Shown here: piece by piece, positions 1-37,592 of the stretch | How positions within the stretch are numbered: position 1 is the first letter of the stretch | Layout: each line of letters opens with the position of its first letter | Assembly: GCA_964607835.1 (NCBI GenBank) | Contig: CAZSLL010000007.1 | Span: 1-56,458, forward strand | Source: an uncultured archaeon | GTDB taxonomy: Archaea > Aenigmatarchaeota > Aenigmatarchaeia > QMZP01 | Length of the DNA stretch: 56,458 nt | Reading direction: 5' to 3' | Made by a program: the position numbers and the translations under genes | The notes under the pieces: model-generated | The model's database searches: none | What the model saw: only the letters and a program-made list of their open reading frames with translations | What the model was told of the DNA's origin: nothing

Positions 1-3000
1 AACTGGAATGCCCCGGTGCAGGCACTTGACAGGAACCTGGACTCAGGAAACTGGGACGACACTGACATATTCAGTCCCTGCGTGATTAAGGACGATGACG
101 TTTACAGGATGTGGTACAGCGGAGACACAAGCGGTGTGCAGAGGATACTCCACACCAAGACCAGCTTCATAGACTCCAGCGGCAACAGGAACCCGGGCAT
201 GTCCTGGGGCAGCTACCTCCCCACGCTGGAGGACTCGGGGACAGTGGGCTTCCTGGGCAACAACACATATGACTTCGATGGCGGGGACTACATCAGGCTC
301 AGGGAGATTGACCTCACTGGTGAGTGGACCGTGGCCTACTGGTTCAACCAGGACACCAATGACAGGATGACCGTGGGCAAGAACGGCGAGACAGCCAACT
401 ATTTCAGGCACATAAGCGATGGCGCCACGCTGAGGATAAACTACAATGACGACAGCAGCAAAGACCTCTCTGTGGGAGGAAGCCTTAACACGTGGCACCA
501 TCTTGTGGTGACCAGCAACGGCTCCTCGAGCGGGCCAAACATCACGGCCTACCTTGACGGCGAGCTTGTGGACTCCGCCACCCAACCCGACCCAAGGTTC
601 AGGATTGACAACATAGGCTTCCCCTACACCAGCGGCTTGCAGTGGGACGGCGGCCTGGATGAGATAGCGGTGTGGAACCGCACACTCTCGGATGCAGAGG
701 TCTCAGAGATATACGGGAGGCAGGACATGAGGTTCACGGGCAACTACACCTCCCAGGCATTCACGCCAGGCTACAGGGTGGCCTGGACCAACCTTACCTG
801 GCTCAACACCACGGACTCATCCTCCACAATAGAGGTTCGGACCAGGACAAGCAACAAGCTGGACTGCTCCGGTGACTGGACGCCCTGGTCAGAGCCCCGC
901 ACCAACCCCTCCAGCCTCATAAATGTTTCTGCCAACTGCCTTCAGTACAGGGCGGTTTTCACCACCACCAATATGTCAGAGGACAACCAGCTTGAGCTGG
1001 CAAACATGACATTCGGCGACAGGCCCAGCGACTTTGACTGCTGGGACGAGGAGACTGATGACGAGACCAAGCCTCCTCCACCATCCGGCTATGTTGAACA
1101 GAATGTGTACGAGGACACTGACGTGCACTTCTGGGCCAACTTCACCGAGGACCTCACGAGCAAGATAATTGGAAGGACTATAACCAGGGTTGACCTTGAC
1201 AACTACATATACAGGGTGGAGGCAGGTGACATAGACGGGGACTCCAAGCCCGAGCTGGCTGTGGGAAGGCTGAGCGGGGGCAATGAGCTCAGGGTGTACG
1301 AGAATGACGGCACACAGAAATGGGTCAACAACACAGACGGCAGCGTGTACGGCCTGGCCATGGCTGACCTCGATGGTGACGGCAGCCTGGAAGTGGTTTC
1401 AGGCTCCACTGACGGAATGGTAAACGCCTTCGACAGCGCAGGTGACCTCATCTGGCCCTCCAGGTATGATGCCGGAGAGGACGTTCAGGTCCTGGCAGCC
1501 TCTGACGTGGACGGAGACAACACGCCGGATGTCATTGTGGGGACCAGAAACCAGACAGGCCATGAGCTCAGGGTGCTGGACGGCTCTGACGGCACCCTTC
1601 TCTGGAGCGAGGACATGAACGAGTCTGTCTATGACCTGGACGTGGGGGACCTTGACGGAGACGGCGTGGACGACATAGCAGTTGGCATAAAGGATGGCTA
1701 TGTTTATGCATACAACGGTTCCGGAGCAAAGCTCTGGGAATATGCTGCAGGGGGCAAGGTCATGTCAGTGGTCATAGGCGACGTGGGCAGCGACGGAAGC
1801 AACGAGGTCGCCATAGGTCGTGACGTGGGGAGCTATGAGTTCAGGCTCCTTCACGGCAGCAGCGGCACCCTTGACTGGCAGAAAGACCCCGGCAGCAGGG
1901 TGGGATACGAGTGGTTCTCAGAGGAGATAATAGCCATAGGCGACGTTGACTCTGACGGAAGCAATGACGTTGTGTTCGGCTCATGGGACGGATACGTCTA
2001 CGCTTATGACTCCTCAGGAAGCTCCCTGTGGAGCTACAACGCAGACGCCCCTGTTTTCGCCGTGAGCATGGAGGACACTGACGGCGACGGGGGCGTGGAG
2101 GTAGCTGTCACCGTGGATGATGAGGAGAAGGCCCTCAAGGTGGTGGGACCCACGGGCTCATCAGAGTGGTGGATGGGCTTCACAGAGAACATGTTCGACC
2201 TGGAGTCCCATGACATTGACAGTGACGGCATCAAGGACGTGGTCACAGGCTCTTTTGATACCCACGCCTACGCCCTGAGAGGGGCTACGTGCAGGATATG
2301 GTTCAATGACACTGCCACATGGACATACATGAACTGGAGCTATGAGGACAACCTCTGGAGCCACAGCAGGGTTTTCGAAGACCCGAATGAGTACGAGTGG
2401 AACATGTCCTGCTCATTCGGCAACTACCAGTACCAGTACAGGTACTCCAACATAACCATTATGGCTGTGGAGGACCCGCCTGACCCCAAATTTGTTGACC
2501 CCACCCCTGAGAACGAGACCAAGAGGAAGCTTGACTGGATTCACGTGAGGGTGTTCTCTGACAAGGAGATTGGCACGTGCACCCTGAACTGGATAAACAG
2601 CTCAGGCAACGTGAACATAACCATGACCAAGGAGGCATCCGGGGTGTACTGTAATAAGAACATGACCGGACTCGGCAACGAGGACCACTACTTCAGGGCC
2701 TACGTGAGCGACACCTCAGGCAACCTTAACGTCACAGAGGACAGGGAGGTCACCATAGACACAGTCACCCTGGCGCCCAGGTTCATATCACCCACGCTCT
2801 CCAACACATCCACCACCCCCCACAACTGGCTTTACATAAACGTTTCAGGCGGAAAGGCTATTGACACGTGCTACCTTGACTGGCCCGGTTCAGGGAACGA
2901 GAGCATGTTCGTTGACGGCTCATACTGCTACCTTAACAAGACCGGCCTATCTGACAGCTCCTACTATTTCATGGTATGGGCCAACGACACCACGTTCGGG

Positions 3001-6000
3001 AGCTTCAACTCAACAGAAGACAGGGAACTCACAGTGCAGACAGGCCTGGCCGACTGCGTTGGGGCCGCTGTGGGAGACCCTGTGGCCACCTGCCACAAGT
3101 GCGGCGTGGACTATGCCAAGCTCACCATCATAGGCCCGACCGGGACTGGCTCCTACGGCCCCGTGAGCATGGGCTTTGACTCCCAGACCGGAGCCTGCAC
3201 GGCTGCTGACGCCAACAAGACCAACTGGACCTATGACCTGGGATACGCCTTCTGCCCTGCAGAGGGACAGTACAACGGCAGCGTGACCTTCAACGCAGAG
3301 GGCGACACCAACGTTGACGAGAACACCGGAACGGACTGGCCTCTCTACAATATTGTATACGATGACACCCAGGGATGGTGCGAGTGTGCTGATTATGAAT
3401 GGATGACCGCGGCTGACTCAGGGAACGGGGAGTGCTGCGGCGACGACGGGGCCTCTGACACATTCGGCAACGCCACTGACGGCTACACCTGCAGCTACTG
3501 CGACTCCGGGGTCTCAACAACCAACACCCCGCCCAACATACCCGCCACGGGTTCCACCAGTCCTGACTATGCCTATCCAGAGGACAACGTGACCGTGAGC
3601 TCTGTCATAACAGACCCTGACTCTGATGATGTACATGTCCTGGTGTACGACACCCCTGAGAGGGACACCCTGCTCTGCACGGGAAGCACGGTTTCCTCGG
3701 GCCAGTCCTCCTCCTGCAAATTCAGCGCACCTGACGCGGGCTGCATCAACGGCACCTGCGTGCTCTACCTCTACGCCAACGAGTCCACCGTGGACTATTG
3801 CGGGGACACCAAGATGAACGAGAGCTATGGCACAGCAGAGTTCCAGTACGACGCAAGCCCTGAGATAACCGTGATTAACCCTGAAAACACCTCCTACCAG
3901 ACCCAGCTGTTGGACCTCAATGTGAGCACCAAGTACGCCTCCTCTGCCTGCCTCTACAATCTGGACGGGGGAAGCAACACCACCCTGCAGAACGACTCCT
4001 CATCCAACTGGTTCTATGCAATGGACACCGGCGGGAGCGGGCTTTTCGAGCTCCAGGTCTACTGCAACACCACCACAGGGGTCTGGGGTATGGAGACACT
4101 CTGGTTCACTGTGGACAACTCGCCACCAGCCATAACACTTGCCTCTCCCTCCAACAGCTCCTACAGGACCACCTCCATAGACCTCAACGCCTCTGCCAGC
4201 GAGGAGGTTGAGGCCTGGTGGTACGAGCTAAACAATGACGGGGTGAACCGCTCATTCACGCCCAACTCCTCCATAACCACCACCCTGGAGGGCCTCAACA
4301 ACATCACTGTGTGGGCCAACGACAGCGCGGGCAACAACGGCTCCACCTCCCTGGTGTGGTTCACCCTGGACAGGTTCACTCCTCTGATAGACTGGGTTGA
4401 CCCCACCCCCACTGACGGGGTTTACAGAAACAAGAGCTGGGCCCACCTAAACACCACCGTGACAGACAACACCACGACCTCAGCCTTCCTCGACTGGAAC
4501 TACTCCCTGGTGGGATACTGGTCCATGGACCACTACTCCTCTTCCGGGGTTTACGATAACTCCTCCAACAACTGGTTCGGAACCTGGTACGGCGGCCTGG
4601 GGACAGACAACATCACAGAGGGCAGGTTCGGAAAGGGCCTGGACTTCGACGGCTCTGACGACAGGGTTGTGATAAACGGGGACAGTCCTTTCCCGGTGAA
4701 CTTCTCAGATAAAGGACTAACGGTAACTGCCTGGATCAAGACCTCTTCCACAGGGACAAGGAAATCCGTATGGGGAGGCAACGGGAACAGTGCATATTAT
4801 AATCTGAGAGTGGATGACGGGGAAAGGGCAGAGTTCTGGCTGGGATCCAGTCCATCAAATAACCTTGTGGAGGGAACAACCACACTGCAGCCAGGTACCT
4901 GGTACTTCCTGGTGGGTGTGTGGGACCCCTCTGTCCCCGAGCTCAGGGTATACGTTAACGCGACCGAGGAGGACTCCGGCTTCAACGGCAACTACCCGAA
5001 CAACCAACAATATGCCAGGAACTGTATAGGACAGAAGAATAATGACGAGAGGATGCACGGGGTCATTGACGAAGTCCGCATATACAGCAGGGCCCTCTCC
5101 CCAGAGGAAATCAACGCCTCTTATGACAACAGCCTCTACCGCCTCAACGCCAACATCACAGGCCAGGCAGACGGTTTCTACAATTACTCTGCCTACGTCA
5201 TTGACTCAGCAGGCAACATGAACATAACAGGCACCAGGAACGTCACCCTGGACGCCACCAAGCCCGTGATACAGTGGGAGGACCCCACCCCGCCGGACGG
5301 AAACATCACCGGCAACGACTGGGTGTACCTCAACACCACGGTTACTGACACCACAGGAACCTCGGCCTTCTTTGACTGGGACTCCAGCCTCCTGGGCTAC
5401 TGGTCAATGGACTCCTACAACTCCTCAGGGGTCTTCGACAACTCAAGCTACGGCGACTTCATGGCCTTTGATAGCATAACAAGCGCCAACATAACAGAGG
5501 GCCGATTCGGCAACGCCATGGACTTCTCAGGGTGCTCAGGAAACCTCACCGCTGCTGCCTCAGCCTCACTGGGGGACAACGCCAGCTACACTCTGGAGGC
5601 ATGGTTCAAGAGGAACGATGTCTCAGGAAGGGAGGACATCCTGTACGCGTCAGTGGCGGCCAGGCAGCTGGACACCTCCAACTCCGCACTGCAGGGCTCC
5701 ATAAGGAACGGGACCACCTGGACGAGTATAACCGGAGGGACAATAACAGCAGGCCAGTGGCACCACGGGGCCGCGGTCTTCGATGAGGAGAACAGGAACT
5801 TCACCATATACCTGGACGGGGAGCTGGTGAACTACATCGTGCTTACCGGGGGAACCATTGCATCCACCAGTTCATACACCATAGGCGGCGTGCCCAGCCT
5901 GAGTTTCGACGGCTTCATAGACGAGGCCCGGGTACACAGCCGCGCCCTCTCCCATGATGAAATCAGGGCCTCCTACGATAATGATGCAAACCGCCTCGAG

Positions 6001-9000
6001 GGCAACATCACAGGTCTATCAGACGGCTCCCAGAGTTACAGGGCCTTTGCCATCGACAGGGCAGGCAATCTGAACATCACTCCCTCCAGGGACATCACAA
6101 TAGACCTCACCAACCCGGCAGTGACCTGGGAGGACCCCACCCCTGACCCTGACGAGACCATCAAGAATGACTGGGCCTACCTCAACACCACCATAACCGA
6201 CCACTCCATGACATCGGCATTCCTCGACTGGGACTACTCCCTTGTGGGCTACTGGTCAATGGACTCCTACAACTCGACTGCTGTCCTGGACAACTCCACA
6301 CATGACAATGAACTAGTGCTCGACGGGATAACCACGGGAAGCATAACCAAAGGTAAGTTCGGCAACGCCATGGATTTCTCGGGCAGCCTTGGCAACCTCA
6401 CAACCACCCCGTCAAACGGCATACTCGAGGACAACACCAGCTACACCCTGGAGGCCTGGTTCAGGAGGAACGACGTCTCAGGAAGGGAGGACATAATCTA
6501 CGCCTCCCTGTCAGCAAGGCACCTCGATACATATGATGACGAACTTGTCAGCTGGGTCAAGAACGGCTCTACCTGGGTATCTGCTAGAGGCGGCACCATA
6601 ACAGCAGGTCAATGGCACCACGCAGCAACTTCGTATGACGAAGACACAAGAAACCTCACCCTTTATATGGACGGTGATCTTGTGGACTACCTGCTCATTG
6701 GTGATGGGGCTATAGCGTCCAGTGGCAGCGATCAAATAGGCGGGGCAACTACCTATAGCTTCGACGGCCTCATAGACGAGGTTCGTGTGCACAGACGGGC
6801 GCTGAGCCATGACGAGATAAGGGCGTCCTACAACAACAGCATCTACCGCCTGGAGGGGAACATAACCGGCCTTGGCATTGGAAACCACAACTACACAGCC
6901 TACTCAATTGACGAGTTCGGGAACCTGGGAATCACGGGCGAGAGGAACGTTTCCTACTATGTGGACAACGAGCCCCCTGTTATCACAGTATACTCCCCAG
7001 AGAATGCCACATACACATCCGGCTCCATACAGCTTAATGTGTCAGCGGACGACGGCACTGATACCTGGTGGTACGAGCTGAATTCAAACGGCACCAACGT
7101 CACGTTCACCCCCAACTCCACCATATTCACGGGATTTGACGGTCTCAATAACATAACTGTGTGGGCCAACGAGACCAACGGCAACACCAACTCCACCATT
7201 GTCTGGTTCACCCTGGACACCATAAAGCCAGTTATATTGTGGGAGGACCCCACCCCAACTGACGGGCATTCAGGGAGCGAGAACTACGCAGAGCTCAACA
7301 CCACCATACTGGACAACACCACAACGACCGCCCTGCTCGACTGGAACTACTCCCTGGTGGGATACTGGTCCATGGACCACTACAACTCAACAGGGGCATA
7401 CGACAACTCAAGCTATGAGAACTTCGCCACCTACACTAACGGCGTGTCTGATTCAGATATGGAAAGGGGCATGTTCGGCAAATGCGTTTCCCTCGATGGA
7501 AGCTCTTACCTGAACGCTGGCAACGGCAGCAGCTTTGACATAACAGACGAGATAACGGTCTCGTTCTGGATGAAGCACAACTCGGCAAGCCAGAAGCAGA
7601 TACTGCTCGGAAAGGATGATGCCTATGCGTTCTGGTTCAACGGGACTGACGTGAGGTTCGCTGTCTGGATAAGCAGCAACTACAGGGAATCAGGCTACAC
7701 CAGCATAACCATGCAGGAGGGCGAGTGGTACCATGTCACGGGCAGGTTCAACGGAAGCCAGGTCCAGGTATGGGTGGACGGCACCAAGGAGAGCTCAGGG
7801 GACTTCTCAGGAAGCATTGACACCTCTGTCCATGACTTCAGGATAGGCGGGGACATCTCGCTCTGGGAGGACAGGTACTTCAACGGGTACATTGACGAGG
7901 TGGCTGTGCACAGCAGAGCCCTCTCCCCCCAGGAGATAAACGCCTCCTACGACAACAGCCAGTACAGGCTCATGGGAACATTCTCCTCCCTTACTGAGGG
8001 CAGATACGAGTATTACGCATACGCGAATGACAAAGGAGGCAACCTCAACATGACCGGCATGAGGTCATTCAGCATTGACAACAACCCTCCTCACGCGATA
8101 GAGTTCGTGTCCCCGACCCCCAGCAACAACACCCGCCAGACAGGGAACTCCCACGAGATAAACGTGACAGTATCAGACGCCCTGGCTGACATTGACGCCT
8201 GCCTGCTGGACAACGGCACGGCCAACATAACCATGACCATGGAGGGTTCAGGCACTGACGTCTACTGCCACTACACCCTCTCCACTACTGACGGCACTGA
8301 CTACAACCTCACAGTGTGGGCCAATGACACGGGTGGAAACCTCAACCAGTCAGCCCAGCTCAACTTCAGGGAGAACGATGAGCCCTCCATAACAGGCGTT
8401 GACGTGACCCCAGACTCCCCCTCAACCACGGATGACCTGCTCTGCACGGTGTCCGGCTGGTCAGACTCAGAGGGAGACTCCCAGCAGTACTGGTTCTACT
8501 GGTACAGGGATGATGTTCAGCAGATGGCCTTCCTGCAATCCGGGACCACCCACACCCTGCTCTGGGGCAACACCTCCTCGGGTGAGGAGTGGAACTGCAC
8601 GGTCATCCCGTATGACGGATTCGAAAACGGCACGATCATGGACGACACCGTTACCGTGAGCCAGGGATGCGTCATAGACACCCACGTGACCCTGTCAGCA
8701 GACCTTGACTGCACAGGGCACAGGCTCAACATAACCTCCTCTGGCGAGCTCGTTGCGGGGGCCTACAACGTCACGGCTGACAACGCCACAATAAAGGGCA
8801 ACCTTACCTCCACCACAGGAAGCCTCAACTTCACGGACTCCTCTGGCGTCATTGTCTTCTCGGGCTGCAACGTGACCGCAGGCTCAGGGCCTGACTTCCT
8901 GGGCTCCCTGAACGTGGACTCGGGCGGCGAATACAGCGCCACCTCTGATACAACGGAAATCGAGACAGACTGGAACATCTCGGGCACCTTCACCCACAAC

Positions 9001-12000
9001 TCAGGTATCGTGGAGCTCACGGGAACCGAGAACTCTGCCCTAATCGGCACAGATAGCCTTTACACCCTGCTCATAAACAAGGCCGCAACCGCTGACATAT
9101 GCACCCCGCAGAACGCCCTATCCATAAGCAACAACCTCACCATAGAGGAGGGCGAGTTCAACGCCACGGGCTTCACCCACGCGATAGGCGGCTCCCTGAC
9201 CAAGACAGGGGGCTCCCTGAGGCTCTACAGCGATTCATCCTACCTCAACATCGAGGACCACCTAATATCCACGGGCGGGACCCTGACCGACGCCTCTTCC
9301 TCCAGGATATACGTGAAGGGAGACGTCCACATAACAGGGAGCTCGCTAAACATTTATCCAGCAAGGCTATACCTGGACGGCAACAGGAACTCCACCATAT
9401 ACTCACCGGACAGCCAGGTGGGTTATGCCCTTAACATAGAAAAGGACACGGGCTACAAGGTCACTGCAGAAAGCGACCTCAATTACCGGCACCTTTTCCA
9501 CCAGAATGGTTATTTCGATGTGAATGGCCATACTGTTGACGGCTACGGCGTGTACTACGCATACTCGGGGGCAATCCTGATGATGTCCTCAGGGACCCTC
9601 GAGGTTGGTAATAACGGCTACAATGGGGGGACATACAGCCCCTGGTACTGCGGAAACGGCTGGAGCGAGGAGATTTCCGGGGGCACTATCCAGGTCTACG
9701 GCAGCATAAACGGAAACGGCTACGGAACAGCCCACTTCGCCTCGGGCTCTGACTTCACGCCCTCAGGAGGACTGTTCAGGCTCATAGGAACGGACGATGG
9801 AGAGATACAAGTCCTTGAGTCCACGAACTTCGGTTTCCACGACCTGGAGATTGACAGGACTGGCCAATGGGTGAAATGCTCTGAAAATCAGGAAATGGTA
9901 GTAAATAATGATTTCAACATAACAGCCGGAACTTTCATCACCAACGGCAACGATGTTTCCACCGCATACCTCAATGTTTCCTCAGGCGCCTCCCTGAACG
10001 TGACCAACGAGAGCACCCTGACCATGACGGGCAGCCTCATACTCGAAGGCTCGTTCAACGTGAACAACGGAACCGCGAAGAACATCACCCTGAATGGAAC
10101 AAAGTTCACGGTTTCAGGCGAGGCCGTTCGCATCGAGAACTACCTCTCAGAGCCCGCGGACGGCAACGGCATACACAATATCTCCAAGTACGTCAACCTC
10201 ACTGACCTGGGAGGGGGCTCATTCGGTCTTAACGTCTCCTACGAGGACTCTGACCTCGGCTCTGTACCCGAGGCGAGCCTCGAGATGTATAGGCACTCTG
10301 GCAGCTGGGGCCTCGAGGCGGGCTCTGGCGTGGACCAGGAAACCAACACAGTGGAGGCCACAGGCATATCCAGCTTCGGCCTGTTTGCCCCCATGGGCAA
10401 CAACGCCCCCAGTATAACGAGCATAGATGACTCACTGGAGACCCTGGAGCCCACTGACACCCAGACCATAACCCCCTCAGGCCAGGCAGACGCTGACTCA
10501 GACGCCCTTGACATGTACTGCTGCGTGGACGGTTCGGACTCCTGTACCCCCACCGCGGCCAACAACAACTGCACAGGAGGCAACTGGGAGGACCAGGCGT
10601 CCCCCTACGGCTCCATGGATTGCACTTATCCCGCTGGCTCCTCCCAGGGCACTGAATACGTGAGGTGCAGGCTCTATGACGGAAACGATTACTCTTCCAC
10701 GGTATCTGAGAGCTACACCATAGGCCTGGCCGGACCAACCTCGCTTTTGGTTTCCATAAACGATACATATGCCCTGAATGCTGAACTCGGCGGCCTGGCT
10801 CTTTCCTGGACAGATGGCTCCAGCCAGGAGGACGGCTATTACCTCTATCGCTCACAAGACAACTCCTCATGGAGCCTTCTTTCAACAGAGTCTGCCGACA
10901 CTCAATCATACTCTGACATAGACGTGAGCGACAACGCCCTATACCATTACAGGGTAAGGGCATACAAGGGAACCGAGAACTCATCCTACTCAAACGTGGC
11001 CTGGAACATGACTGCTGACAGGACAGGCCCGGAGCAGCCCAATCTCACGGCATCGGCGGACAACTCTGGTAATCAGGTGCTCCTCGACTGGGTCCAGGAG
11101 GATGAAGGGCTCCTGCTTTACGCCCCAATGGAGAACGTGACAGGGGACGGCACAGAGGACTGGAGCAATTACAGCCACTCCATCATCCCCCAGAGCGACC
11201 CTGCCCAGCAGGAGGGGATATTTGGGAACGCTGCAGAGCTTGATGGTAATGATGCATTCAACGTGACAGGCGACCTGGGCAACTCCTCTGAAATGACCCT
11301 CATGATGTGGTTCAACGCCACTGACCACAACAGCGGGACTCAATACCTCGCAGACGGAAGGGCAGGAGGAGGCTCCTGGTGGTTCATATCTGATTATACA
11401 GGAGGCTATTGCGGGGCTGACACCGAGGGCAACCTCTGCTTCGAGAACCTGGTCATGGTGCATTCTGACAACCTGTCCAGCAACGACTGGTACCATGTCG
11501 CTGTCACCCAGGACGGCTCTGCAACCAAGATATACCTGAACGGTGTTCTCATGGAGACAGGCTCGGGCTCTGACCCTGACATAGGGGAGGGCATGAGGAT
11601 AGGCAGCAGGTACACTGACGCCAGCTATTTCGACGGCCTTATTGACGAGGTCAGGGTGTACGGCAAGGTCCTGGGCCACTCTGACATAATCGACGACTAC
11701 CAGTCTGGCCTCATCAACCACGCCCTTTACAGGGCAGAGTCTTATTCAGGGCCCTACTCGTTCGTGAACACATCCTCAAATCTGCTCATCAACCCCGGCT
11801 TCGAGGCAGACTCCACCTGCCTGGAAACCGACCCGACTGGATGGACCCATGTCTCCCCATCAGGCGACTGCTGGGAGGTAGAGAGCGGGGTTGTAAATAG
11901 CGGGTCACAGGCCTTCGGCAACAGCTACGGATGCGACGCTTACTGTGATGACGAGGGCCAGGCAGGCTCATGGCCCGACATCTATGTGTACCAGAATGTG

Positions 12001-15000
12001 AGCGTCTCCGACCCCGGGACTGTATATGCCTCAGCCTATATTTACCTGAGCGGAGACCCATCGACATGCGGTGAATGTGGTGACCCGTATCACTGCATAC
12101 TGGAGGACGATGGAAGGATACACCTCTACGCCTATGATTCTGACGGGAATCTGCTCGATGAGTTCAAGGGAGACTGGGGAGGCGACTACAGATACTCCTC
12201 AGGGTGGAACCTTTTCGAGGAGACCTGGATTCCGCCAGAGGGCACTGCAAAGATAAGGATGCAGGTTGACGGAAGCGATAACAACAACAACTGCCTCACA
12301 GACCCGGGATCAGAAGGGGATTATGACGAATCCGGCATAGGCAATACAGCCCTCTACGTGGATGACGCTGTGCTCTATACGCTCCCTGCGACCAACAATC
12401 TCACAGACACTGAGGCCACGGACACCTCCCCGCCTGACTCTCCCTCTATAGCAGCAACCGCCCACAACCAGACCCAGATAAACATTACCTGGACCAATCC
12501 ACAGGACAACGGAAAGGGTTACTACTATTATCTCTCATCATATGATGATGAGGGAAACATCAACGACTACTTCACTGACTCCAACGTGGTCACCAACACA
12601 GATCTGGACACCGGCTGGTCAAAGGGCTATACGAGCGACATACAATGGAATGACATTGACCCGCCGCTTGGAATCAACGCAGAGGTGGTTAGCTTCGTGG
12701 ACGAGGACAGCTCCGGCTCATGCTATTGGTACAGCTACGGGGACTACGCGCCCCAGGACAATGACACCACCTATGTTGTCTCGCTCTGGGTAAGGACTAA
12801 CAGCTCCTCTGATGTTGAGGTGAGGTTCTACACAGCCGACAATAGCGAGGCAGACAGGACGACGGGAGAATACAGGTATGTCAATGCCTCTGAGGGATGG
12901 AAGCTCCTGGTTTGGGATGCCTTCACGACCGCCGACCCCACTGACAGCGACAGCCTGAGCTTCAATTTCAGGGAGATGGGCACATCAAGGCTCTGGCTTA
13001 GTGCCCCCCAGATGGAGCCGGCTGAATACCCGACTTTCATAGAGAACGACACCGTGACCACCGGCTTCAAGCAGCTGAGAATCCAGACCAACTCAAGCGG
13101 GTCGTGGAGCGACATTGACACCGATTCCTCCAGTCCGTTTGTCCATGGTGGGCTTGACCCGCACACAGAATACTGCTACAGGGCATACTCAGCGGACAAT
13201 GCAGACAACGAGAACCCCACTGTATCGGCCTATACCTGCGCGGAGACCGAAAACTCTGTTCCCTACATGACCGGGATAACCAGCACCAAAGACCCTGTTC
13301 AGGGGGGCTCACAGCAGGAAATCAACGCCACCAGCCCGGAGGACGGGGACTCTGACGCGCTCACCTTTTACTGCTGCCTTGACGACTCAGACACCTGCAC
13401 CCCCACGGAAGCCAACCAGAACTGCACATCAGGGGCCTACAGCTCTGTTGCCAGCCCCTACACGGACATGGGATGCTTCTTCGATGTCCCCCAGTATGAC
13501 GGGACCCATTATGTTCGCTGCAGGCTCTGGGACGGGTACGACTACTCTCCCGAAGCCAACACAACCTCATTCGTCATCGATTCTGCTCCCCCATACTCCA
13601 TTGAGTTCGTGTCCCCGACCCCCAGCAACAACACCCGCCAGACAGGGAACTCCCACGAGATAAACGTGACAGTATCAGACGCCCTGGCTGACATTGACGC
13701 CTGCCTGCTGGACAACGGCACGGCCAACATAACCATGACCATGGAGGGTTCAGGCACTGACGTCTACTGCCACTACACCCTCTCCACTACTGACGGCACT
13801 GACTACAACCTCACAGTGTGGGCCAATGACTCAGTGGGCAACCTCAACCAGTCAGCCCAGCTCAACTTCAGGGAGAACGACGAGCCCTCCATAACAGGCG
13901 TTGACGTGACCCCAGACTCAGCCACCACGGATGATGACCTGCTCTGCACGGTGTCCGGCTGGTCAGACGCTGACGGTGACAGCGAGCAGTACTGGTTCTA
14001 CTGGTACAAGGATGATGTTCAGCAGATGGCCTTCCTCCAGTCCGGGACAACCCACACACTGCTCTCTGGCAACACCTCCTCAGGAGAGGAGTGGAACTGC
14101 ACGGTCATACCATATGATGGCCACGAAAACGGCACCTCCCATGATGACACAGTGACCATAGGCAACAGCCCGCCGAGCCTGGACCAGACCGAGCTCTACC
14201 CCGCTGCCCCTGACACAGCGGACAGCCTTGAGCTCAACGCCACCTGCTCTGACAACGATGCGGGCGACTCGCTGACAGTTTACTGGTACATATGGAAGAA
14301 TGATACCATGGTGTCCGCGCTCACGGGCTCTTCAGGCGTGGCAAACGGTGACGAGGAGCTCGTTTACACCATACTGTCCTCCAACACCTCAAACAACGAG
14401 GAGTGGTGGGCAGAGGTGTGGTGCGATGACGGCACCACCAACACCTCGCACTCAAACACCACAAAGCGATACATAGCCAACACCCCGCCCTATATGCAAA
14501 GCATAAGCGAGTCCGATGACCCCATAAAGGGAGGGGATACCCAGACCATAACCCCATCAGGCCAGACAGATGTTGATGAAGACGCCCTTGACCTCGTGTG
14601 CTGCCAGGACGGTGACGACTCTTGCACCCCCACCACTGGCTCCAACATATGCACGGGCGGGAGCTGGGAGGACCAGGCTTCACCTTACGGCTCCATGGAC
14701 TGTACATTCACAGTCAATTCAGTGGACGACGCCACCTATTATGCAAGGTGCAGGCTCTGGGACGGGTACAGCTACTCCACTCAGGTGAACTCGACCTCAT
14801 TCGTGGTGGACTCCACAGCCCCCACCACCACGGACAACTCCTCATCGACCTGGGCAGACTCGGCCACTATCAGGCTAACCTGCAATGACGGTGCAGGCGT
14901 GGGGTGTGACACCGTTGCCTACTGCATTGACACCGATGGCGGCGGGGCTGACTGCTCTGTGGACACCTATACAGACATATCGGGCGGGATAGTTGATATT

Positions 15001-30720: not shown

Positions 30721-30951
30721 TTACTTTGAGGCCTTGGCGGCAGAGGGTTTCACGGCTTCCCTGAGGTTGGATATCTCCTTCCTGAGCTCCCTGAGCTCGT
30801 TGCTGAGTTGGAGCTCCTCTGCATCAAACTTCCTGGTTATCACTCTCAGCTGCCTGAACTCGAACTCCAGTATTATGAGGTAGACCACCACTACGGTGGA
30901 GAAAATGACCAGGAGCTCCAGTATGGGCACATCGATTCCGAATATGTACAT
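30721..30951 (-). CDS. Small bitopic membrane protein (76 aa): N-terminal TM helix plus coiled coil
   Basis: LLVIFSTVVVVYLIIL helix followed by ELQLSNELRELRKEISNLREA. Starts 14 nt after the upstream stop. Confidence 0.82.
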   Translation of the reverse strand: MYIFGIDVPILELLVIFSTVVVVYLIILEFEFRQLRVITRKFDAEELQLSNELRELRKEISNLREAVKPSAAKASK

Positions 30952-30965: not shown

Positions 30966-33900
30966 CTAAATACCCTTCCTGAAGCCCGTGTACCCCTTGC
31001 TCCTTACCTCCCTCAGCCTCCTGAAGGAGAAGAAGGCGAGCACAGAGAGCACTATAAGTATCATGAGCGCCTCAAGGGCCCCGGGGATTCCTCCCTCCAC
31101 GCCCAGCACGTAGAAGTTCCCTGTGGAGGAGGCAAGCACTGCGAAGTCCTCCCTGAACCTTGCCTTTGCGATGTAGTTTCCTGCAGGGGCGGTTGCCGGG
31201 ATGACGAACTTCTGGTACATCTGGGACTTCTCCAGGGGCTCCATGTTCTCCAGCCTTGTTATGTCAGTGAATATAACATCCATTCCCGGGGTGTATATCT
31301 CCAACTCCATATAGGGGAAGTCAATCTTCTCCCCTCCGTTGATGACCAGTATCTCCAGGCTCACCGGAGCGTTGAGGTTGTATCTGTCCCTGTCAGGGGT
31401 GACTATGATTGTGGGGTAGCTCTCTACGTATGTTATGGACACTGTCTTGAGCTCCTGGGCGTCTATGCTGTCCACTGTTATGCTTGTGGTGTCCTTTCCG
31501 CCTGTGAACGCCATCTCGTTCCCGAACCCGTCCCTGGCCTGCTCTATCTTGCTGTATGATATGGGAAGGTTGAGTATGACGTTTCTGTAGTCCTCCTGGG
31601 CAAAGCTCTTTAGGTATACATCCATCTTGAGCCTTACCTTCTTCTCAGGGAGCTGCTCCAATACCTCCACGTCCCTGTCTATTTCCAGCACCTGCGGGGT
31701 GAGGACAGTGACCTCATAGTTTCTGGTCTCCAGCGGCTTCATGACCGTGTTCCATGTCATGAGCTTGTTGCCGTTGGAATCCTTCCTGAAGAGCACGGGC
31801 TCCTCCACCCTCCTGCCTGTGTCGCTTATGTAGCTGACATAGCCGTCAGATGCGTCCTCGAACACCTGGGTCCGGAACTCTGCGTCAATGGTCTTGGCGT
31901 TGGGGTTGTACACGTCGAATCCCTTGTTCCATATCACTGGCTTGCCCACTATGACTGTCTTGGACTGCCTGAGCTCCTCCTCATCTATCTGGAAAGGCAG
32001 GGTGGGCTTTGGAAGCACCACCTTGATAACGCCGTAGAATGACGTGTCCAGAGAGGCCCCGGTGTCAGGGTCGAAGGCCGCTATGGTCACAGGGAGCACG
32101 TACAGCCCTGGCTGGTTGTAGTTTATCTTGTAGCTCACCCTTATGTAGTCGTCATTGCCCAGGGTCCATGTGGTGTTGCCCTCTGATGATGAGTAGTTCA
32201 CGAACTCGAACATGCGCACATTGAGCCCGTCAGGGGTCTTTGCGGTTCCGTTGTCTGTTATCTCGTATTCATTGTTGGTGTGAAGGGTCCACTTGGTCTC
32301 TGCCCCTCCATCGTCAACATAATAAACGCTTACGTTGCCCACATAGTCAGAGTAGCTTATGGTGTTGGCGGGTACGTAGTCCATGAACTTGATGCCTGTT
32401 ATCCCGGTACCTGAGGTGTCCTCCACAGACAGCTTTATGGTGGAATTTATTTCAGTGGGCGAGCTGGGGTCGTAGGCCACCAGGTCCTTGTAACCGGTAA
32501 GCCTCTTTCCTGCCACCTGCACTGTCCTGTTGTTGAAGTATTCCCTGTCCTCTGTGTCAGTGCTGGAGTTGAGCTGTCCCGTGCCCCAGAATATGTAGGT
32601 GTCTCCGGTCTCCATCTGGCTGTTGGACTCCACCTTGAAGTTCATCTTTAAGTCCTGCCCTGTGTCAAGAATCCCCCCTACTGTCCCTCCTGCCGCGAGG
32701 TCGCATGATGCCAGGTCGTTCACTGTGAGTTGGACCAGGCCGTCGTCTCCCAGTGAGTCAGATGGCTGGGTTATGGTGACCACGCAGTTGGTGGAATCAT
32801 TGGCTATCTGGTAGGTGTTGTTCAGGTATATCTTGACGTCATCATGTATGTACCAGCCAAAAGACTCCCCGTTCTCGCTCCTGAAGTCGCCCAGGGTTGT
32901 GTTGGTGGGCACGTATGCCTTGATTTCCGCGAAACCAGGGTCAGTCTCGTCAGCCCCGGTGTTGTACAGTGTATAGTTGAGCGTGATGTTCTCGCCTCCC
33001 ACCTCAGGGGAAACGGTTCCTGAAGGGGCTCCCTGGAGGGCCACCAGGTCGAGAAGGTACAGGATGGGCATGTCCAGGCTCGTGTTTATGTATGTGAGGT
33101 TGTTCTCGCTGTTGGTGGCGTTCCATATTACCTCCCAGTCAAAGAACACCGATATGTATGGCTTGGTTGTTGAGGATGTGTTGTAGAGTGTGGTGTTGGA
33201 TGACTTGGAGTCGTTGGTGGTGTAAACCCTTCCGTCCGACACGCTCAGCTCGTTTGAGTCACCGCTTGCGTTGAACCCCCCGTACTGTAGCATGCTCTGG
33301 GGAGCCCCTGTCGCGGGGTCGACCTGGTATATCCTCCACTCAGTAATATTATATGTAAGGTTCTGGCCGCTGTCAGAGTTGCCCATGTGCTTTATGAAGC
33401 CCCTGACATACCAGTAACCGCCGTTCGCGGAGAGGTCCACTCCCTGCCTTATGGGGCCCCTGGCGAACTTGTCTTTCGCTGTGATGTCAGAATAAAGCGC
33501 CTGTGTTGTGTAATAGGTTGATGTTGTCCCCAGGTCAGCGGTGAACTCTGCCTCACCGTTGCCGTCCAGGTTCAGGCTGTCCCCTGTGAAATGGGTTGCG
33601 TGGGTAATGTTGATATCAATGGTCACATTGACTGACGCCCCTCCGGCCAGGGTGCCTGTCCACTGCATGTGGTCGTAGTCACCGTCAGCATCAGTGTCCT
33701 GTCTTACGGCTGTCCCGGCCTCTTCGCTGGGGTCTGATGTTATGTTGACCTCCCTTCCGGCTGCACCTGTTCCCCTGTCAAAATACATGTCCACTGTTAT
33801 GGAGTTGTCGTTTATGGTGTTTGTGCCGTGCTCGTTGGCTATGGTGAGCACAAGCCTGTACTCGTTGTGTGACTGGTCAATGTTCTCGTTATCATAAAGG

Positions 33901-34346
33901 TCCTGTCCTCCCCTCAGGTTGAAGTAATCCAGGGTCAGGTTGATGCTCGGGAACTCGTCTGTTATGTCATAGGTGGTGTCAGCATCATTGTCAGAGGTGT
34001 TGACGTATATCTGCTCCCAGTCATCAGCGTTTGGGAAGGATGCGAGGGCGTTCGCGTACTGGGTCTCGTTGTGGATGTTGGAGTATGTGTCGTATCCTGA
34101 GTTCAGCTCAATCTGTATGTACTGGAGAACGTCATCGTTGTTGGGCACAGAGACGTACATGGAGCCTGTCCTGGAGAGCCCGGTCTTCTCGCTCCCGTTT
34201 GGCCAGTAAGTGCACTCCAGCTCCTCCTGTACGAGGAACTTGGGTCCGTATATCTGGGCGCTTACTGCAGGGAATGCCAGCGATGCCACGAATAGAATCA
34301 AAGCTAATGCAGTTGCACTCTTCACCGCGCCGCCCATAAAACGCAT
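30966..34346 (-). CDS. Membrane-anchored surface glycoprotein (1,126 aa), paralog A
   Basis: Signal peptide (ALILFVASLAFPAVSA), Ig-like beta-rich domains, sequons, C-terminal TM with basic tail. Confidence 0.9.
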   Translation of the reverse strand: MRFMGGAVKSATALALILFVASLAFPAVSAQIYGPKFLVQEELECTYWPNGSEKTGLSRTGSMYVSVPNNDDVLQYIQIELNSGYDTYSNIHNETQYANALASFPNADDWEQIYVNTSDNDADTTYDITDEFPSINLTLDYFNLRGGQDLYDNENIDQSHNEYRLVLTIANEHGTNTINDNSITVDMYFDRGTGAAGREVNITSDPSEEAGTAVRQDTDADGDYDHMQWTGTLAGGASVNVTIDINITHATHFTGDSLNLDGNGEAEFTADLGTTSTYYTTQALYSDITAKDKFARGPIRQGVDLSANGGYWYVRGFIKHMGNSDSGQNLTYNITEWRIYQVDPATGAPQSMLQYGGFNASGDSNELSVSDGRVYTTNDSKSSNTTLYNTSSTTKPYISVFFDWEVIWNATNSENNLTYINTSLDMPILYLLDLVALQGAPSGTVSPEVGGENITLNYTLYNTGADETDPGFAEIKAYVPTNTTLGDFRSENGESFGWYIHDDVKIYLNNTYQIANDSTNCVVTITQPSDSLGDDGLVQLTVNDLASCDLAAGGTVGGILDTGQDLKMNFKVESNSQMETGDTYIFWGTGQLNSSTDTEDREYFNNRTVQVAGKRLTGYKDLVAYDPSSPTEINSTIKLSVEDTSGTGITGIKFMDYVPANTISYSDYVGNVSVYYVDDGGAETKWTLHTNNEYEITDNGTAKTPDGLNVRMFEFVNYSSSEGNTTWTLGNDDYIRVSYKINYNQPGLYVLPVTIAAFDPDTGASLDTSFYGVIKVVLPKPTLPFQIDEEELRQSKTVIVGKPVIWNKGFDVYNPNAKTIDAEFRTQVFEDASDGYVSYISDTGRRVEEPVLFRKDSNGNKLMTWNTVMKPLETRNYEVTVLTPQVLEIDRDVEVLEQLPEKKVRLKMDVYLKSFAQEDYRNVILNLPISYSKIEQARDGFGNEMAFTGGKDTTSITVDSIDAQELKTVSITYVESYPTIIVTPDRDRYNLNAPVSLEILVINGGEKIDFPYMELEIYTPGMDVIFTDITRLENMEPLEKSQMYQKFVIPATAPAGNYIAKARFREDFAVLASSTGNFYVLGVEGGIPGALEALMILIVLSVLAFFSFRRLREVRSKGYTGFRKGI

Positions 34347-34388: not shown

Positions 34389-37300
34389 CTACTTCAGTTC
34401 CCTGAGTCTCTTCTTGATTTCATCGAACTCCCCTGACCTCTTCCTCTTCCATGCCCTTATGAGCAGGAATGCGATTATGGCCACAGCCACTCCCATGAAA
34501 CCAAGCCAGCTCACCGTGACCAGCATCCTTTCGGGGCAGTTTATGGTGAAGTCTGTCTGGGCCGCCATTATGGTCCCGAAGCTCTTCTTGTAGACCGCCT
34601 GGACGTAGTACCTGCCGTCAGGGAATGCGCTCACGTCCACGGTGACAGGTATCTCCACCTCCTCCCAGGGCCAGAGCTCCCTCAGTTCTATGAGCTGGGC
34701 GTTTATGGTCCTGAGTTCTGGTTCAGGCCCCACGACCTCGAACTCGATGTATGACTGGGATTCCCTCTGGGCAGGCACCAGGAGTATCTTCATCTCAGCC
34801 TTTTCAGCGCAGGTGAGCGAGGAGGATTCCATGGCAGCCATGAGTATGGGGGGCACCTGGCTGTACACCACTGTTATGGTCCTCTCCCATCCCGAGTCCA
34901 TGTCCCCCAGGTATACCTCTGTGGTGAAGGGGTCGAATGTACTGTGGTTCAGGGGTTTTCCCTCTTCCCTCACGCTAACCACCCTGTCAGGCTCTGTGCT
35001 GAACAGGAGGGAGACATCATCATAATCGATTCCCGCGAAGTTCCTCAGGGTTATGTTGACCTCGAATGTTATCTCGGTCTCGCTGGACTCCATGACCTCC
35101 ACACTCCTGCTGGTCTCCAGTATGGGAGGAGTCACGGCCTCCAGGGCGTATGACCTGGTCTGCCCGGGCCCGAGCCTGAAGAGCATGTCCACGTAGGTGG
35201 AGCCGCTCTCCTTGAGCGCGAGCTCCTCCCTGGCTCCCTCCTGGGTAACCGAGTATGCGCTCATGGTGTCATCGAACACGTCGAAAGAGCGCACGTGCTC
35301 CATGGATGCGTTGTTCGGGTTGGTGACCTCCAGGGTCTTTACCCATTTCACGGGCCTTCCGGTGTATATCTTGTCATGTGTCCAGGGGCCCTCTGTGACG
35401 TAGGGGTCCTGGAGCTTGCCCTCCCTCCTCACGGGCACGTATATGTCCTCGAACATGTAGCTGTCCTCATAGTAGTTGTATGCGTTGAGCCTGGTTACCA
35501 GGAAGCTCGTGCCCACCGGGACAGTTGACTCGTACTCCACCTCGAGTTCATCCCTGTCATGGAGCACCAGGCTCTCCTCAAGGGTTCCCCTCTCCGAGGC
35601 CTTGATTATCTCATACTCCCTGTAGCTCCCTCCCCCGAACACTGTCATGCCATTGTCCTCCAGGTTGTAGTCCGTGCCCTTGATCCACTCTGTCCACTGG
35701 CCTGTTGATGAGTCCAGTATCCTTATGGACAGCGAAGAGGAGTCCATCCGTCCGTACTCTGGTATGTAGAGCAGGAGCCTGGTGTCCTTCACACCCTTGC
35801 TGCCTGTGTCATACACCCTGTAGAGCCCCCTGACCCTTACCTGGTTGTCTGCAATGAAGAACGCCTCGCCCTCTGCCCTCATTATGTCGGCGAAGAGCGC
35901 CGGGGCAACAGAGCCTCCTCCCCCGCCACCGCCGCCCTCGTCAGGGGGCACGTATCCTCCAACACCGGGTATTGTTATGGTCTCGCATGAGGTGCTTGAT
36001 GCTGGAGTCCCTGATTCTGTCACCATGGTGGATGTCTGGCAGAACTCGTAGTCCTGGTTAAGGCCGTGCGAGTCGCCGCTCACATCGAATGCCAGCCTTA
36101 TGTCCTCGTTCTGGCCCATGGGTCCGCCCAGGACTGATGAAACATCGGATATGTTGACGAACACCACGCCGTCTGTGCTCCCGGCCGCCTCTGTATATAT
36201 AGAGGCCTGGGCGGTTATGTCGGTCTGGTCAGTCCCGTTCACATGGTACACCCTAACGTTCGAGGGAGACCAGTCATTCTCCACCCCGCTCTCAGAAAGC
36301 CATGGAAGGCTCGCCGCTATCTCCACGCTCCCTGCCCCCAGGGACGCGTGTCCTATGTGCCTTGCAGTATCGCTTACGGATATGACAGTGTTGTTCTCTT
36401 CGTTGTTCTCAAGTATAAGCCCCCCTGATGACCACACCTCCATCTCGTAGAGGGTGGGCATCTCAAGCTCTGCCGTGCTGGAGCTGGAGTATACAGACAC
36501 GCCCCAGTCCACCTCCCAGTCCCAGGCCACAGAGTAGTACCCCGGGTCGCTGGAGCTCCCTGATGTCCCGGTGTCGTGCCAGTCAGTGTAAACGGTCTCC
36601 CCGGGGCCAGGGTCAGGAACGCTCCCAGAGTAGGCCACCGGGGAGGCCTCTCCAACCCTGTAGAGCTCCCATCCGTGGGTCACGTAGTCCAGGCCCCCTG
36701 CCATGTTGGTTATGAAACCCCTCACCGCCCACGTGCTCATGGTCATCAGGGTTATGCCCTCCCTGACCGGGCCCCTGGAGAACCTGTCAGAGAATGTTAT
36801 GTCAGTGTATGTCCCTGAGTTGTCCTGGTGGCGGGCCTCTGCCGAGCCCCCCTGGTCAAGGTCTATTGACAGGAGGCTCTCGTCAAAGGTGACCCCTGGC
36901 TCTGTGTCTCCTGCGAACCATATCTCCACACCCCCCGGTCCCACTGAACCTGTCCACCTTATGGTGTCGAACTCGCCGTCAGAGTCACCGTCCTGCTCCA
37001 TTGCGCTCCCGCTGCTGGCCCCCGCGTCCCTGAGGCTGAATGAGTCCCTTGAGCCCTGGGTGTTCCTTGGGAACCTTATGTACACAGTCACGCTGGAGAG
37101 GCTCATGGTGGAGTTCAGGGTTGCGTTGAACCTGAATGCGTTCTGCCCCCCTGCTGAGATGTCCGCCCCTCCCAGCTCGTTGGAGTGTTCCAGGTCAAGA
37201 TAGAGCACAGGGGTTATGGAGGGATTGGTTATCTCATAGCTTATGTTGCTCATGCTCGATGTGGTGTTGATGTAGAGCCTTGTCCTGCTTTCTATGGTGG

Positions 37301-37592
37301 GGGAGGCCGCTGCCCCCTTGTAGGCCACAGCTGACTGGAGGTTGGTGTCAGACATCTGGGGCACGTCCAGGTCCAGAAGTAAGTACTGCAGCACGTCCTG
37401 GGTGTTGGGAACCTCCACCTCCACGTACCCCCTTCGGGTCAGGGGCTCTGTGACAGCCCCGTCAGCGGAGTACCCCACTGATACCTCCTCTGTTATGAAT
37501 GATGCCGGGACCTCGGCCTCAGCGACAGCCGGATATAAAAGCAGGAGACACAAACTAATCACTAGGGCGGACGTCCGGTTTGGCCAAACCAT
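34389..37592 (-). CDS. Membrane-anchored surface glycoprotein (1,067 aa), paralog B
   Basis: Signal peptide and C-terminal TM. Colinear motifs with the 1,126-aa protein: VPN..DVLQY, F.RGP.R.G, DWEV.W, G.PV.W.K...V.NPN. Confidence 0.9.
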   Translation of the reverse strand: MVWPNRTSALVISLCLLLLYPAVAEAEVPASFITEEVSVGYSADGAVTEPLTRRGYVEVEVPNTQDVLQYLLLDLDVPQMSDTNLQSAVAYKGAAASPTIESRTRLYINTTSSMSNISYEITNPSITPVLYLDLEHSNELGGADISAGGQNAFRFNATLNSTMSLSSVTVYIRFPRNTQGSRDSFSLRDAGASSGSAMEQDGDSDGEFDTIRWTGSVGPGGVEIWFAGDTEPGVTFDESLLSIDLDQGGSAEARHQDNSGTYTDITFSDRFSRGPVREGITLMTMSTWAVRGFITNMAGGLDYVTHGWELYRVGEASPVAYSGSVPDPGPGETVYTDWHDTGTSGSSSDPGYYSVAWDWEVDWGVSVYSSSSTAELEMPTLYEMEVWSSGGLILENNEENNTVISVSDTARHIGHASLGAGSVEIAASLPWLSESGVENDWSPSNVRVYHVNGTDQTDITAQASIYTEAAGSTDGVVFVNISDVSSVLGGPMGQNEDIRLAFDVSGDSHGLNQDYEFCQTSTMVTESGTPASSTSCETITIPGVGGYVPPDEGGGGGGGGSVAPALFADIMRAEGEAFFIADNQVRVRGLYRVYDTGSKGVKDTRLLLYIPEYGRMDSSSLSIRILDSSTGQWTEWIKGTDYNLEDNGMTVFGGGSYREYEIIKASERGTLEESLVLHDRDELEVEYESTVPVGTSFLVTRLNAYNYYEDSYMFEDIYVPVRREGKLQDPYVTEGPWTHDKIYTGRPVKWVKTLEVTNPNNASMEHVRSFDVFDDTMSAYSVTQEGAREELALKESGSTYVDMLFRLGPGQTRSYALEAVTPPILETSRSVEVMESSETEITFEVNITLRNFAGIDYDDVSLLFSTEPDRVVSVREEGKPLNHSTFDPFTTEVYLGDMDSGWERTITVVYSQVPPILMAAMESSSLTCAEKAEMKILLVPAQRESQSYIEFEVVGPEPELRTINAQLIELRELWPWEEVEIPVTVDVSAFPDGRYYVQAVYKKSFGTIMAAQTDFTINCPERMLVTVSWLGFMGVAVAIIAFLLIRAWKRKRSGEFDEIKKRLRELK

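Follow-up and report, generated by a model that had tools for sequence, protein, structure and literature searches.

Does a cluster of very large surface-protein genes in an uncultured archaeon of the Aenigmatarchaeota encode one machine, and has such a machine been described before? The question is raised by 37.6 kb of contig CAZSLL010000007.1, within an analysed stretch of 56,458 nt (56% GC; here called the window). The original prediction was that seven genes of this cluster build an undescribed, motor-driven contact apparatus. From a survey of homologous loci, the genes very probably form one functional module that is co-inherited. The central gene of the locus, a surface protein fused to an ATPase, encodes a SPEARE protein of a published type and so is not undescribed; its fixed partner genes appear new relative to the literature searched.

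Gene content and layout

The cluster holds six real genes at the positions originally predicted, as judged from open reading frame (ORF) listing and hydropathy. On the plus strand, a giant surface protein of more than 6,584 amino acids (aa) occupies 1..19770 and is convergent to an operon on the minus strand. In order of transcription the operon comprises genes for a 1,067-aa protein (34389..37592), its 1,126-aa paralog (30966..34346), a 76-aa micro-protein (30721..30951), the 2,956-aa fusion protein (21699..30569) and a coiled-coil protein of 490 aa, listed as 488 aa in the database (20230..21702). The first four of these are separated by gaps of 42, 14 and 151 nt, and the start of the 490-aa gene overlaps the stop codon of the fusion gene by 4 nt. 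Coupling is tight and operon-like between fusion and coiled coil and between the 1,126-aa and 76-aa genes. The excess of A over T is strong on the coding strands and flips at about 20 kb, as expected from the convergent arrangement. An Rfam scan of the 459-nt gap between the convergent genes found no RNA gene.

Conservation of the gene set

Neighbourhoods were compared at 85 loci around ATPase homologs and at three loci around homologs of the 1,067-aa protein (L086-L088). Clustering of neighbours at the 85 loci gave four recurrent families, namely the coiled coil (78 loci), the ATPase, a multi-immunoglobulin (multi-Ig) family that includes the C-terminus of the giant and both paralogs (37 loci), and the 76-aa protein (11-13 loci). 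Within the clade that has fusions of ~2,950 aa, 13 loci show a 1,126-type gene with a 76-aa gene directly behind it, just upstream of the fusion, and six loci have a 1,067-type gene upstream on the opposite strand, in divergent orientation. Beyond the coiled coil there is a convergent giant-type gene at 13 loci and a 1,067-type gene in the same convergent position at six to eight. The full order of 1,067-type gene, 1,126-type gene (1,113-1,141 aa), 71-72-aa gene and fusion of ~2,950-2,990 aa is found in L086, L087 and L088. In full, the order in this Aenigmatarchaeota-like clade runs 1,067, 1,126, 76, the ~2,950-aa fusion and the coiled coil, with a giant or 1,067-like gene converging on it; 13 loci beyond these three repeat the part from the 1,126-type gene to the coiled coil. 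The module stands behind EF-2 and ribosomal protein genes in L088 and in a TrkA/GltB context in the window.

Because the same gene order is seen in many independent genomes, linkage exceeds chance, and the view that these homologs are scattered and unlinked in related genomes fails. The survey thus bears out the earlier claim of one linked gene set. A fixed, clade-specific gene set with a shared juxtamembrane module appears new relative to the literature searched, and the system is not described in the 2014 'dark matter' survey (PMC4158269). At five loci (L024, at 12694-12882; L028, L039, L059 and L065) a small winged-helix-like protein of 62-86 aa adjoins the module and may be a local regulator.

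The fusion protein and the SPEARE family

The predicted fusion of a surface protein with an ATPase was recovered by Pfam and hydropathy. It consists of a signal peptide, an FG-GAP/PQQ beta-propeller head, a long Ig-like stalk, one transmembrane (TM) helix, a DUF87/HerA-type ATPase and a helical tail. The ectodomain (about aa 26-2561; 22887..30494, minus strand, from Pfam and ortholog alignment) is ~2,530 aa long. The TM helix, aa 2562-2580 of 2,956 (22830..22886, minus strand), was placed by hydropathy and by a helix in the AlphaFold2 (AF2) model, and is followed by a conserved juxtamembrane motif, RYxFPxDYxKLP. The ATPase core covers aa 2613-2885 (21915..22733, minus strand; Pfam, motifs and fold match), and the conserved C-terminal helical tail aa 2886-2956 (21702..21914, minus strand; alignment and AF2). 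Among 20 fusion orthologs of 2,909-3,106 aa, the ectodomain is 30-40% identical over its whole length and the ATPase 65-70% identical.

Residues 2342-2953 of the fusion align with the C-terminus of a 9,409-aa protein of Ca. Nanohalococcus occultus at 42% identity over 616 aa (E 1.5e-152), and the same C-terminal region also aligns with an SG9 protein. In Ca. Nanohalococcus occultus the 9,409-aa giant surface protein is SVXNc_0300, which adjoins SVXNc_0299. The first neighbourhoods compared had a giant gene ending in the TM+ATPase module, then a short ATPase paralog, then a homolog of the 490-aa gene. Such proteins were named SPEARE by Hamm et al. 2019, who placed the conserved part in the cytoplasm and reported relatives in Woese-, Aenigm- and Micrarchaeota and in Altiarchaeales (PMC6642349). 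Reva et al. 2023 re-read the cytoplasmic domain as a VirB4/TraG-like ATPase and proposed a 'straw' like a type IV secretion system (T4SS) (PMC10266531). Host attachment together with translocation or secretion has therefore been proposed for SPEARE already (PMC6642349, PMC10266531).

The fusion has the conserved cytoplasmic C-terminal domain of the family and is mostly extracytoplasmic, with a single TM helix near the C-terminus. It carries beta-propeller, Big_13 and NEW3-like domains and has no Laminin_G match at E<=0.01; the adjacent giant, which lacks an ATPase, has eight Laminin_G_3 stretches. No protease family of Pfam matched the fusion or three orthologs, the serine protease domain being a SPEARE feature that is disputed by Reva et al. 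(PMC10266531). Weak ResIII-type matches, which gave rise to the original 'restriction enzyme' label of SPEARE, were reproduced in the fusion family. Judged by the defining cytoplasmic domain and the predicted topology, the fusion is a member of the SPEARE family.

Its closest described counterparts are nanohaloarchaeal: NAR1_1133 of Ca. Nanohaloarchaeum antarcticus, SVXNc_0300/0299, and AQV86_02330/02335 of SG9. Overall topology is the same, with a signal peptide, a very long beta-propeller/Ig-like ectodomain, a TM helix towards the C-terminal side, a P-loop ATPase and a helical tail, and identity is 42-45% over ~600 aa. A coiled-coil homolog lies downstream there too. Unlike the nanohaloarchaeal proteins, the fusion of the window clade is fixed at ~2,950 aa with an ectodomain conserved from end to end, and such a fixed-length ectodomain appears new relative to the literature searched. 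The window has a single ATPase, whereas the nanohaloarchaeal loci have a giant-fused and a short ATPase in tandem; two ATPases occur at 17 of the 85 loci. Lectin domains are carried in the window by the separate ATPase-less giant, the fusion being free of Laminin-G, which again differs from nanohaloarchaeal SPEARE. The 76-aa, 1,067-aa and 1,126-aa genes are present in the window and absent from the nanohaloarchaeal loci.

The motor domain

The fusion ATPase matches the Pfam family DUF87/HerA at 36.8 bits against a cutoff of 23.2. Walker A (GSTGAGKS), Walker B (FDEVH) and the motif REFRKWG are invariant among the family members aligned. The TM+ATPase region has 50-75% identical counterparts in Aenigmatarchaeota, Woesearchaeota, Nanohaloarchaeota and other DPANN. 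In a scan of one genome per GTDB species at least 569 relatives are encoded, the best named being metagenome-assembled genomes (MAGs) of Aenigmatarchaeota; a few are in Hydrothermarchaeota, and some relatives probably reflect mis-binned MAGs. Exhaustive profile search gave 427 ATPase clusters (50% identity) at E<=1e-30, in which the ATPase is nearly always C-terminal, in proteins of 600 to 7,900 aa.

An AF2 model of TM helix plus ATPase (mean predicted local distance difference test, pLDDT, 88) has the TM helix, a RecA-type core and a three-helix tail. Its top Foldseek matches are hexameric HerA DNA translocases (4d2i, E 8e-13, 16% identity), followed by antiphage HerA and FtsK motors, with probability 1.00 to both HerA and FtsK; a sequence-profile search of the PDB gave HerA at 1e-9. 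Among known motors, HerA (Sulfolobus HerA, 4d2i; antiphage HerA) is thus the best match by profile and by fold, sharing the RecA-type core, Walker A/B and a REGRKFG-type motif, yet identity is 13-19%, and HerA equivalog models score the fusion at 21-27 bits against cutoffs of 800-970. HerA proper has an N-terminal HAS barrel. None is present in the AF2 model, where the TM helix (residues 8-41) is followed by ~20 residues and then the first core strand. The SPEARE ATPase also differs from HerA in being membrane-anchored with an extracellular domain and in having no NurA, Sir2 or DUF4297 partner.

A TM segment N-terminal to a HerA/FtsK-superfamily NTPase is shared with FtsK/SpoIIIE, TrwB/VirD4 and CedB/CedD, which have two to five TM helices where the fusion has one. 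Matches to FtsK_SpoIIIE, TrwB_AAD_bind, CedD and CedB are weak and far below family cutoffs, and so are all NCBIfam matches of the ATPase (CedD, HerA, TraC and CedB). For Ced, the fusion scores 36.4 against 600 with CedD and 18.8 against 700 with CedB, and the locus lacks a polytopic CedA-type protein. For VirB4, the N-domain PF03135 reported for SVXNc_0299 was not reproduced at E<=1 in that protein (P0088) or in P0021, nor at E<=0.01 in the fusion; TraC scores 21.7 bits against 567, and no VirB2/6/8/9/10-type partners are found in the 85 neighbourhoods. EssC of the type VII secretion system (T7SS) has two or three tandem FtsK-like ATPase domains, together with FHA domains and the partners EssA/EssB/EsaA; the fusion has one ATPase domain, with its FtsK_SpoIIIE matches below threshold. 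On the sequence and model features tested, the fusion falls outside HerA proper, VirB4/T4SS, Ced and T7SS. We conclude from these comparisons that the SPEARE ATPase represents a separate membrane-anchored and highly conserved clade of the HerA/FtsK superfamily. By profile and predicted fold its motor is HerA-like rather than VirB4-like, which corrects the family assignment.

Variants of the ATPase were seen at other loci. One subfamily (P0237, P0248, P0267, P0269, P0272 and P0282) combines an ectodomain of ~600 aa with a long, acidic extension at the C-terminus, in which helical motifs of the form 'HV..KNDFADWI' are repeated. A second, short ATPase paralog of 550-700 aa (Ig-like ectodomain, TM helix, ATPase) follows the giant-ATPase fusion, often with a 4-nt overlap, at L001, L002, L003, L005, L025, L034, L048, L062 and L083-L085. 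Pairing of long and short ATPases in these other DPANN loci suggests mixed rings; in the clade of the window there is one ATPase only. At L068, on a 1.9-Mb contig of the non-DPANN archaeon Ca. Hydrothermarchaeum profundi JdFR-18, a giant-ATPase fusion is accompanied by a 271-aa Ig+TM gene without ATPase and by a coiled-coil gene; the system either extends beyond symbionts or reached this archaeon by transfer.

The coiled-coil partner

The 490-aa protein, placed by Pfam, hydropathy and the neighbourhood survey, is a coiled coil with neither TM helix nor signal peptide, in agreement with its prediction as cytoplasmic; its only matches are to coiled coils. Of the 78 loci that have the gene, 70 have it in the orientation of the ATPase and directly downstream, no more than 400 nt away. 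It appears to be a near-universal, coupled partner of the SPEARE ATPase, and as such new relative to the literature searched. Profiles of the PDB and Pfam gave generic heptad matches only. A search for ATPase-coiled-coil fusions among 150 family representatives and eight long members returned one weak match at the coiled-coil level (P0254, E 5e-7) and gives no support for a link of that kind. By eye, the helical ATPase tail and the hairpin at the C-terminus of the coiled-coil protein both appear MIT/TPR-like; homology between the two was rejected, at an hhalign probability of 0.3%. In nanohaloarchaeal loci a conserved zinc-ribbon protein of ~108 aa with a C-terminal TM helix directly follows the coiled-coil gene (L003, 13433-13759; also L004, L083, L084 and L085); it is absent from the window.

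The accessory surface proteins

The 76-aa protein, recognised by hydropathy and the neighbourhood survey, has one TM helix, with charged residues within it, and a coiled coil, as the prediction of a TM/coiled-coil micro-protein had it. It is the best conserved component apart from the ATPase (86% identity to L006), and wherever its gene was seen, a 1,126-type gene immediately preceded it, the two often abutting or overlapping. Its match to an FtsL-like family is faint (19.5 bits against a cutoff of 42).

The 1,067-aa and 1,126-aa proteins had been described as anchored paralogs of ~1,100 aa, and hydropathy, BLASTP and the survey agree: each has a signal peptide and a C-terminal TM helix, and they are 28% identical (E 5.6e-43). 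The 1,126-aa type I membrane protein has an all-beta ectodomain. The family of the 1,067-aa protein has 29 members in a large protein database, of ~1,010-1,140 aa except for one 811-aa entry; all of them lack Pfam domains and informative names. An acidic, DxDxDG-like motif is conserved in this protein. The AF2 model of the 1,067-aa protein (pLDDT 78) is all-beta, with roughly ten Ig-like sandwiches and then the TM helix. Foldseek returned PrgB Ig domains, macroglobulin domains, integrin alpha legs and the S-layer chains 7ptp and 8c8m, all with very low structural-similarity scores (TM-scores), and no sign of an enzyme. The model fits a stalk-like anchored surface protein and is neutral on an S-layer role. 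A class II (fusexin-like) fusogen was also considered for this protein and rejected, the matches being generic multi-Ig ones only.

The giant protein is acidic (pI 4.05). Its ORF is open at the window edge, and the N-terminus is taken to be cut off by the contig end because the open ORF has no N-terminal signal peptide; TM helices occur at the C-terminus only. Predicted as a lectin-studded protein of more than 6,580 aa, it has, by Pfam, eight Laminin_G_3 stretches (ConA-like lectin, in ~290-aa repeats) together with FG-GAP/beta-propeller and Big/Ig-like domains. Residues 5993-6393 match the middle of both paralogs by BLASTP. In hhalign, aa 6024-6285 align with aa 444-724 of the 1,067-aa family at 99.4% probability, and the last Ig+TM of the giant (aa 6286-6426) with that of the fusion (aa 2447-2585) at 97.8%; fusion against 1,067-aa family is weak (42%). 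Homology of the membrane-proximal domains of the large proteins, as claimed earlier, is thereby confirmed for the giant with each of the other two.

Beyond these domains, the giant has an extra C-terminal unit (aa 6430-6584; 19303..19770, plus strand) in which a signal-peptide-like helix is followed by an Ig (MG2-like) domain, a TM helix and RRKG. At 31% identity (E 3e-17), self-comparison identifies it as an in-frame second copy of the Ig+TM+RRKG unit before it. Homologs in L013, L017, L020 and L024 end after the first TM helix, and a similar extension is found in L012; by its looks the unit was once a mini-gene of its own or arose by tandem duplication. Within the giant gene a 300-nt segment occurs twice at 96% identity (8086-8385 and 13588-13887, plus strand), on top of six to eight diverged lectin-module repeats of ~850-880 nt. 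Either the gene has recently duplicated part of itself, or the assembly may have collapsed at this point.

The seventh predicted gene, for a small basic protein, is doubtful. Two minus-strand ORFs (19653-20171 and 19840-20136) were rejected for it; they are rich in Cys, Arg and Pro, one of them overlaps the 3' end of the giant gene, and they look spurious. A 67-aa basic ORF of the ORF listing (19772..19975, plus strand) is more gene-like and the better candidate; it has no Pfam match, and its sole relative, a weak one, is at the same position in L020. Since this ORF is not conserved and several homologous loci leave no room for a gene between the convergent genes, it is not counted as part of the system.

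A possible contact apparatus

The reading preferred here, a contact apparatus with an ATP-driven translocation step, starts from observed domain content, hydropathy topology, intact catalytic motifs, fold class, family membership and gene order, and is given about an even chance. Its core would be a two-gene pair, the single-pass fusion with a HerA/FtsK-like ring beneath the membrane and the translationally coupled coiled-coil protein, which may bind the ring from the cytoplasmic side. A ring is expected of these HerA-like domains because all their close structural relatives form rings. Each subunit would bear an integrin-like ectodomain of ~2,530 aa, with a beta-propeller as its head and Ig domains as its stalk, so that the ring would cluster six of them. 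In this clade, three co-anchored multi-Ig proteins might join the core: the lectin-rich giant and the two paralogs of 1,067 and 1,126 aa, the latter coupled to the 76-aa TM protein. Proteins with the same Ig+TM module as the ATPase subunit could co-assemble beside the ring, and since the giant shares its last Ig+TM module with that subunit, it plausibly docks there. The ectodomains would bind glycans or proteins on the surface of another cell, and the ring would use ATP hydrolysis to move a polymer across or at the membrane of the symbiont where the two cells touch. By analogy with HerA and FtsK, DNA is the likeliest substrate and protein the second candidate; either one, taken singly, is doubtful.

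A distant analogy, with no homology expected, is the gliding machinery of Mycoplasma mobile, in which giant glycan-binding surface 'legs' (Gli349/Gli521), encoded by neighbouring genes, are coupled to an internal ATPase. There the motor is F1-like and is not fused to the leg, whereas here a HerA-like motor is fused to it.

Several points weigh against a contact apparatus of this kind. Hydropathy of the locus ORFs found no polytopic membrane protein that could serve as a channel, and DNA would pass poorly through a conduit of six (or twelve) single TM helices. No nuclease, channel, pilin, secretion or other transport gene recurs near the ATPase in the 85 neighbourhoods, CedA and VirB channel partners included. 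Pfam, NCBIfam and neighbour clustering agree with the original observation that no VirB/Ced channel, pilus ATPase or archaellum genes are recognisable in the locus. The accessory genes are confined to one clade (76-aa, 11-13 loci; multi-Ig family, 37 of 85). Members of the ATPase family also occur in Hydrothermarchaeota, a group not known to be symbiotic, and contact with a host may therefore not be what the family serves everywhere. Physical assembly, ring, host contact and substrate are all inferred here from genes.

One alternative is a surface-coat or adhesin island without transport, in which the 1,067-aa, 1,126-aa and giant proteins form an S-layer-like or adhesin coat. The ATPase ring and its coiled coil would then act from inside on the giant ectodomain, doing no more than to cluster, anchor or remodel it by oligomerisation, tension or turnover. 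This is unlikely, though less so than the other alternatives. The lack of a channel or substrate-processing gene and the occurrence in non-symbiotic Hydrothermarchaeota speak for it, as does the 1,067-aa model, which is an Ig-like string with a C-terminal anchor and has archaeal S-layer chains, integrin legs and the Ig domains of the PrgB adhesin among its matches. The S-layer chains are among generic multi-Ig matches, however, with TM-scores of 0.08-0.13; the catalytic motifs, and an ATPase that is 65-70% identical between orthologs, point to demanding work as an enzyme, and all characterised close structural relatives of this ATPase thread polymers.

Somewhat less likely still is the T4SS-like 'straw' of Reva et al. 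2023 (PMC10266531), in which the giant is a secretion channel through which a VirB4/TraG-like ATPase injects protein effectors into the host. Sub-threshold Pfam/NCBIfam similarity to TrwB_AAD_bind, T4SS-DNA_transf, TraC and AAA_10 and the coupling-protein-like layout of N-terminal TM helix plus NTPase are consistent with it, and cytoplasmic bridges are reported from cryo-electron tomography of a Nanohalococcus co-culture (PMC11001535). The top sequence and fold matches, however, are to HerA and not to VirB4 or VirD4, PF03135 is not detected at E<=1 in SVXNc_0299, and VirB2/6/8/9/10-like and CedA-like genes are missing from the locus and from the set that recurs around the ATPase.

A membrane-remodelling device, in which ring ATPase, coiled coil and an FtsL-like 76-aa protein open or stabilise a cytoplasmic bridge or fusion pore rather than pump a polymer, is improbable: the universal coiled-coil partner, the strongly conserved 76-aa protein with its charged TM residues and faint FtsL-like match, and the bridges reported in DPANN-host pairs (PMC11001535) fit it, but that match is below threshold, the 1,067-aa model has no fusogen-like fold and the coiled coil, generic heptads apart, has no counterpart among the ESCRT, PspA, dynamin or SNARE families.

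Surrounding region

Next to the module, a 466-aa protein without a Pfam family is encoded at 37580-38980 (plus strand), with a likely start at the methionine of MKPKR, ~37637; its motif GAAGRDFHNFN presumably resembles one of cyclic 2,3-diphosphoglycerate synthetase. Three paralogous lipoprotein-like genes (352, 325 and 308 aa, the last two 29% identical) with an SGC/ASGC lipobox-like N-terminus lie at 40961-44563. Beside them is a 170-aa protein with an N-terminus like an archaeal class III (pilin-type) signal peptide and a weak DUF7287 match, and this gene set also flanks the module in L086 and L087. A 423-aa PHP-type protein (44560-45831, minus strand) matches TIGR00375 below cutoff (197 bits against 327).

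GC content falls to 0.37-0.49 between 46000 and 53500, against ~0.56 elsewhere. Two secreted proteins, an S8 subtilase (49014-50927) and one of 674 aa, are encoded in this stretch together with a 125-aa TM protein. Residues 282-551 of the 674-aa protein are similar (27% identity, E 2e-8) to the lectin repeats of the giant, and the stretch is possibly an acquired surface-protein island. A tRNA of 105 nt at 56271-56375 (minus strand; Rfam, 54 bits), presumably intron-containing, was not reported by ARAGORN.

Implications for DPANN biology

How DPANN archaea attach to and take up material from their hosts is an open question, for which SPEARE proteins are the main candidates, discussed so far as single giant proteins. 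To these the survey adds a universal partner, a defined accessory set in one large clade and a corrected motor family. Tentatively, the SPEARE ATPase and its obligate coiled-coil partner may constitute a separate class of archaeal envelope machine that forms or powers a conduit between DPANN cell and host for DNA or proteins; in the present clade the 76-aa TM protein and the surface proteins that share the Ig+TM module would belong to it too. If true, the class would have nothing in common with T4SS, Ced, T7SS or type IV pili beyond the superfamily of its motor. The vague 'giant adhesin' thereby becomes a short, testable list of parts.

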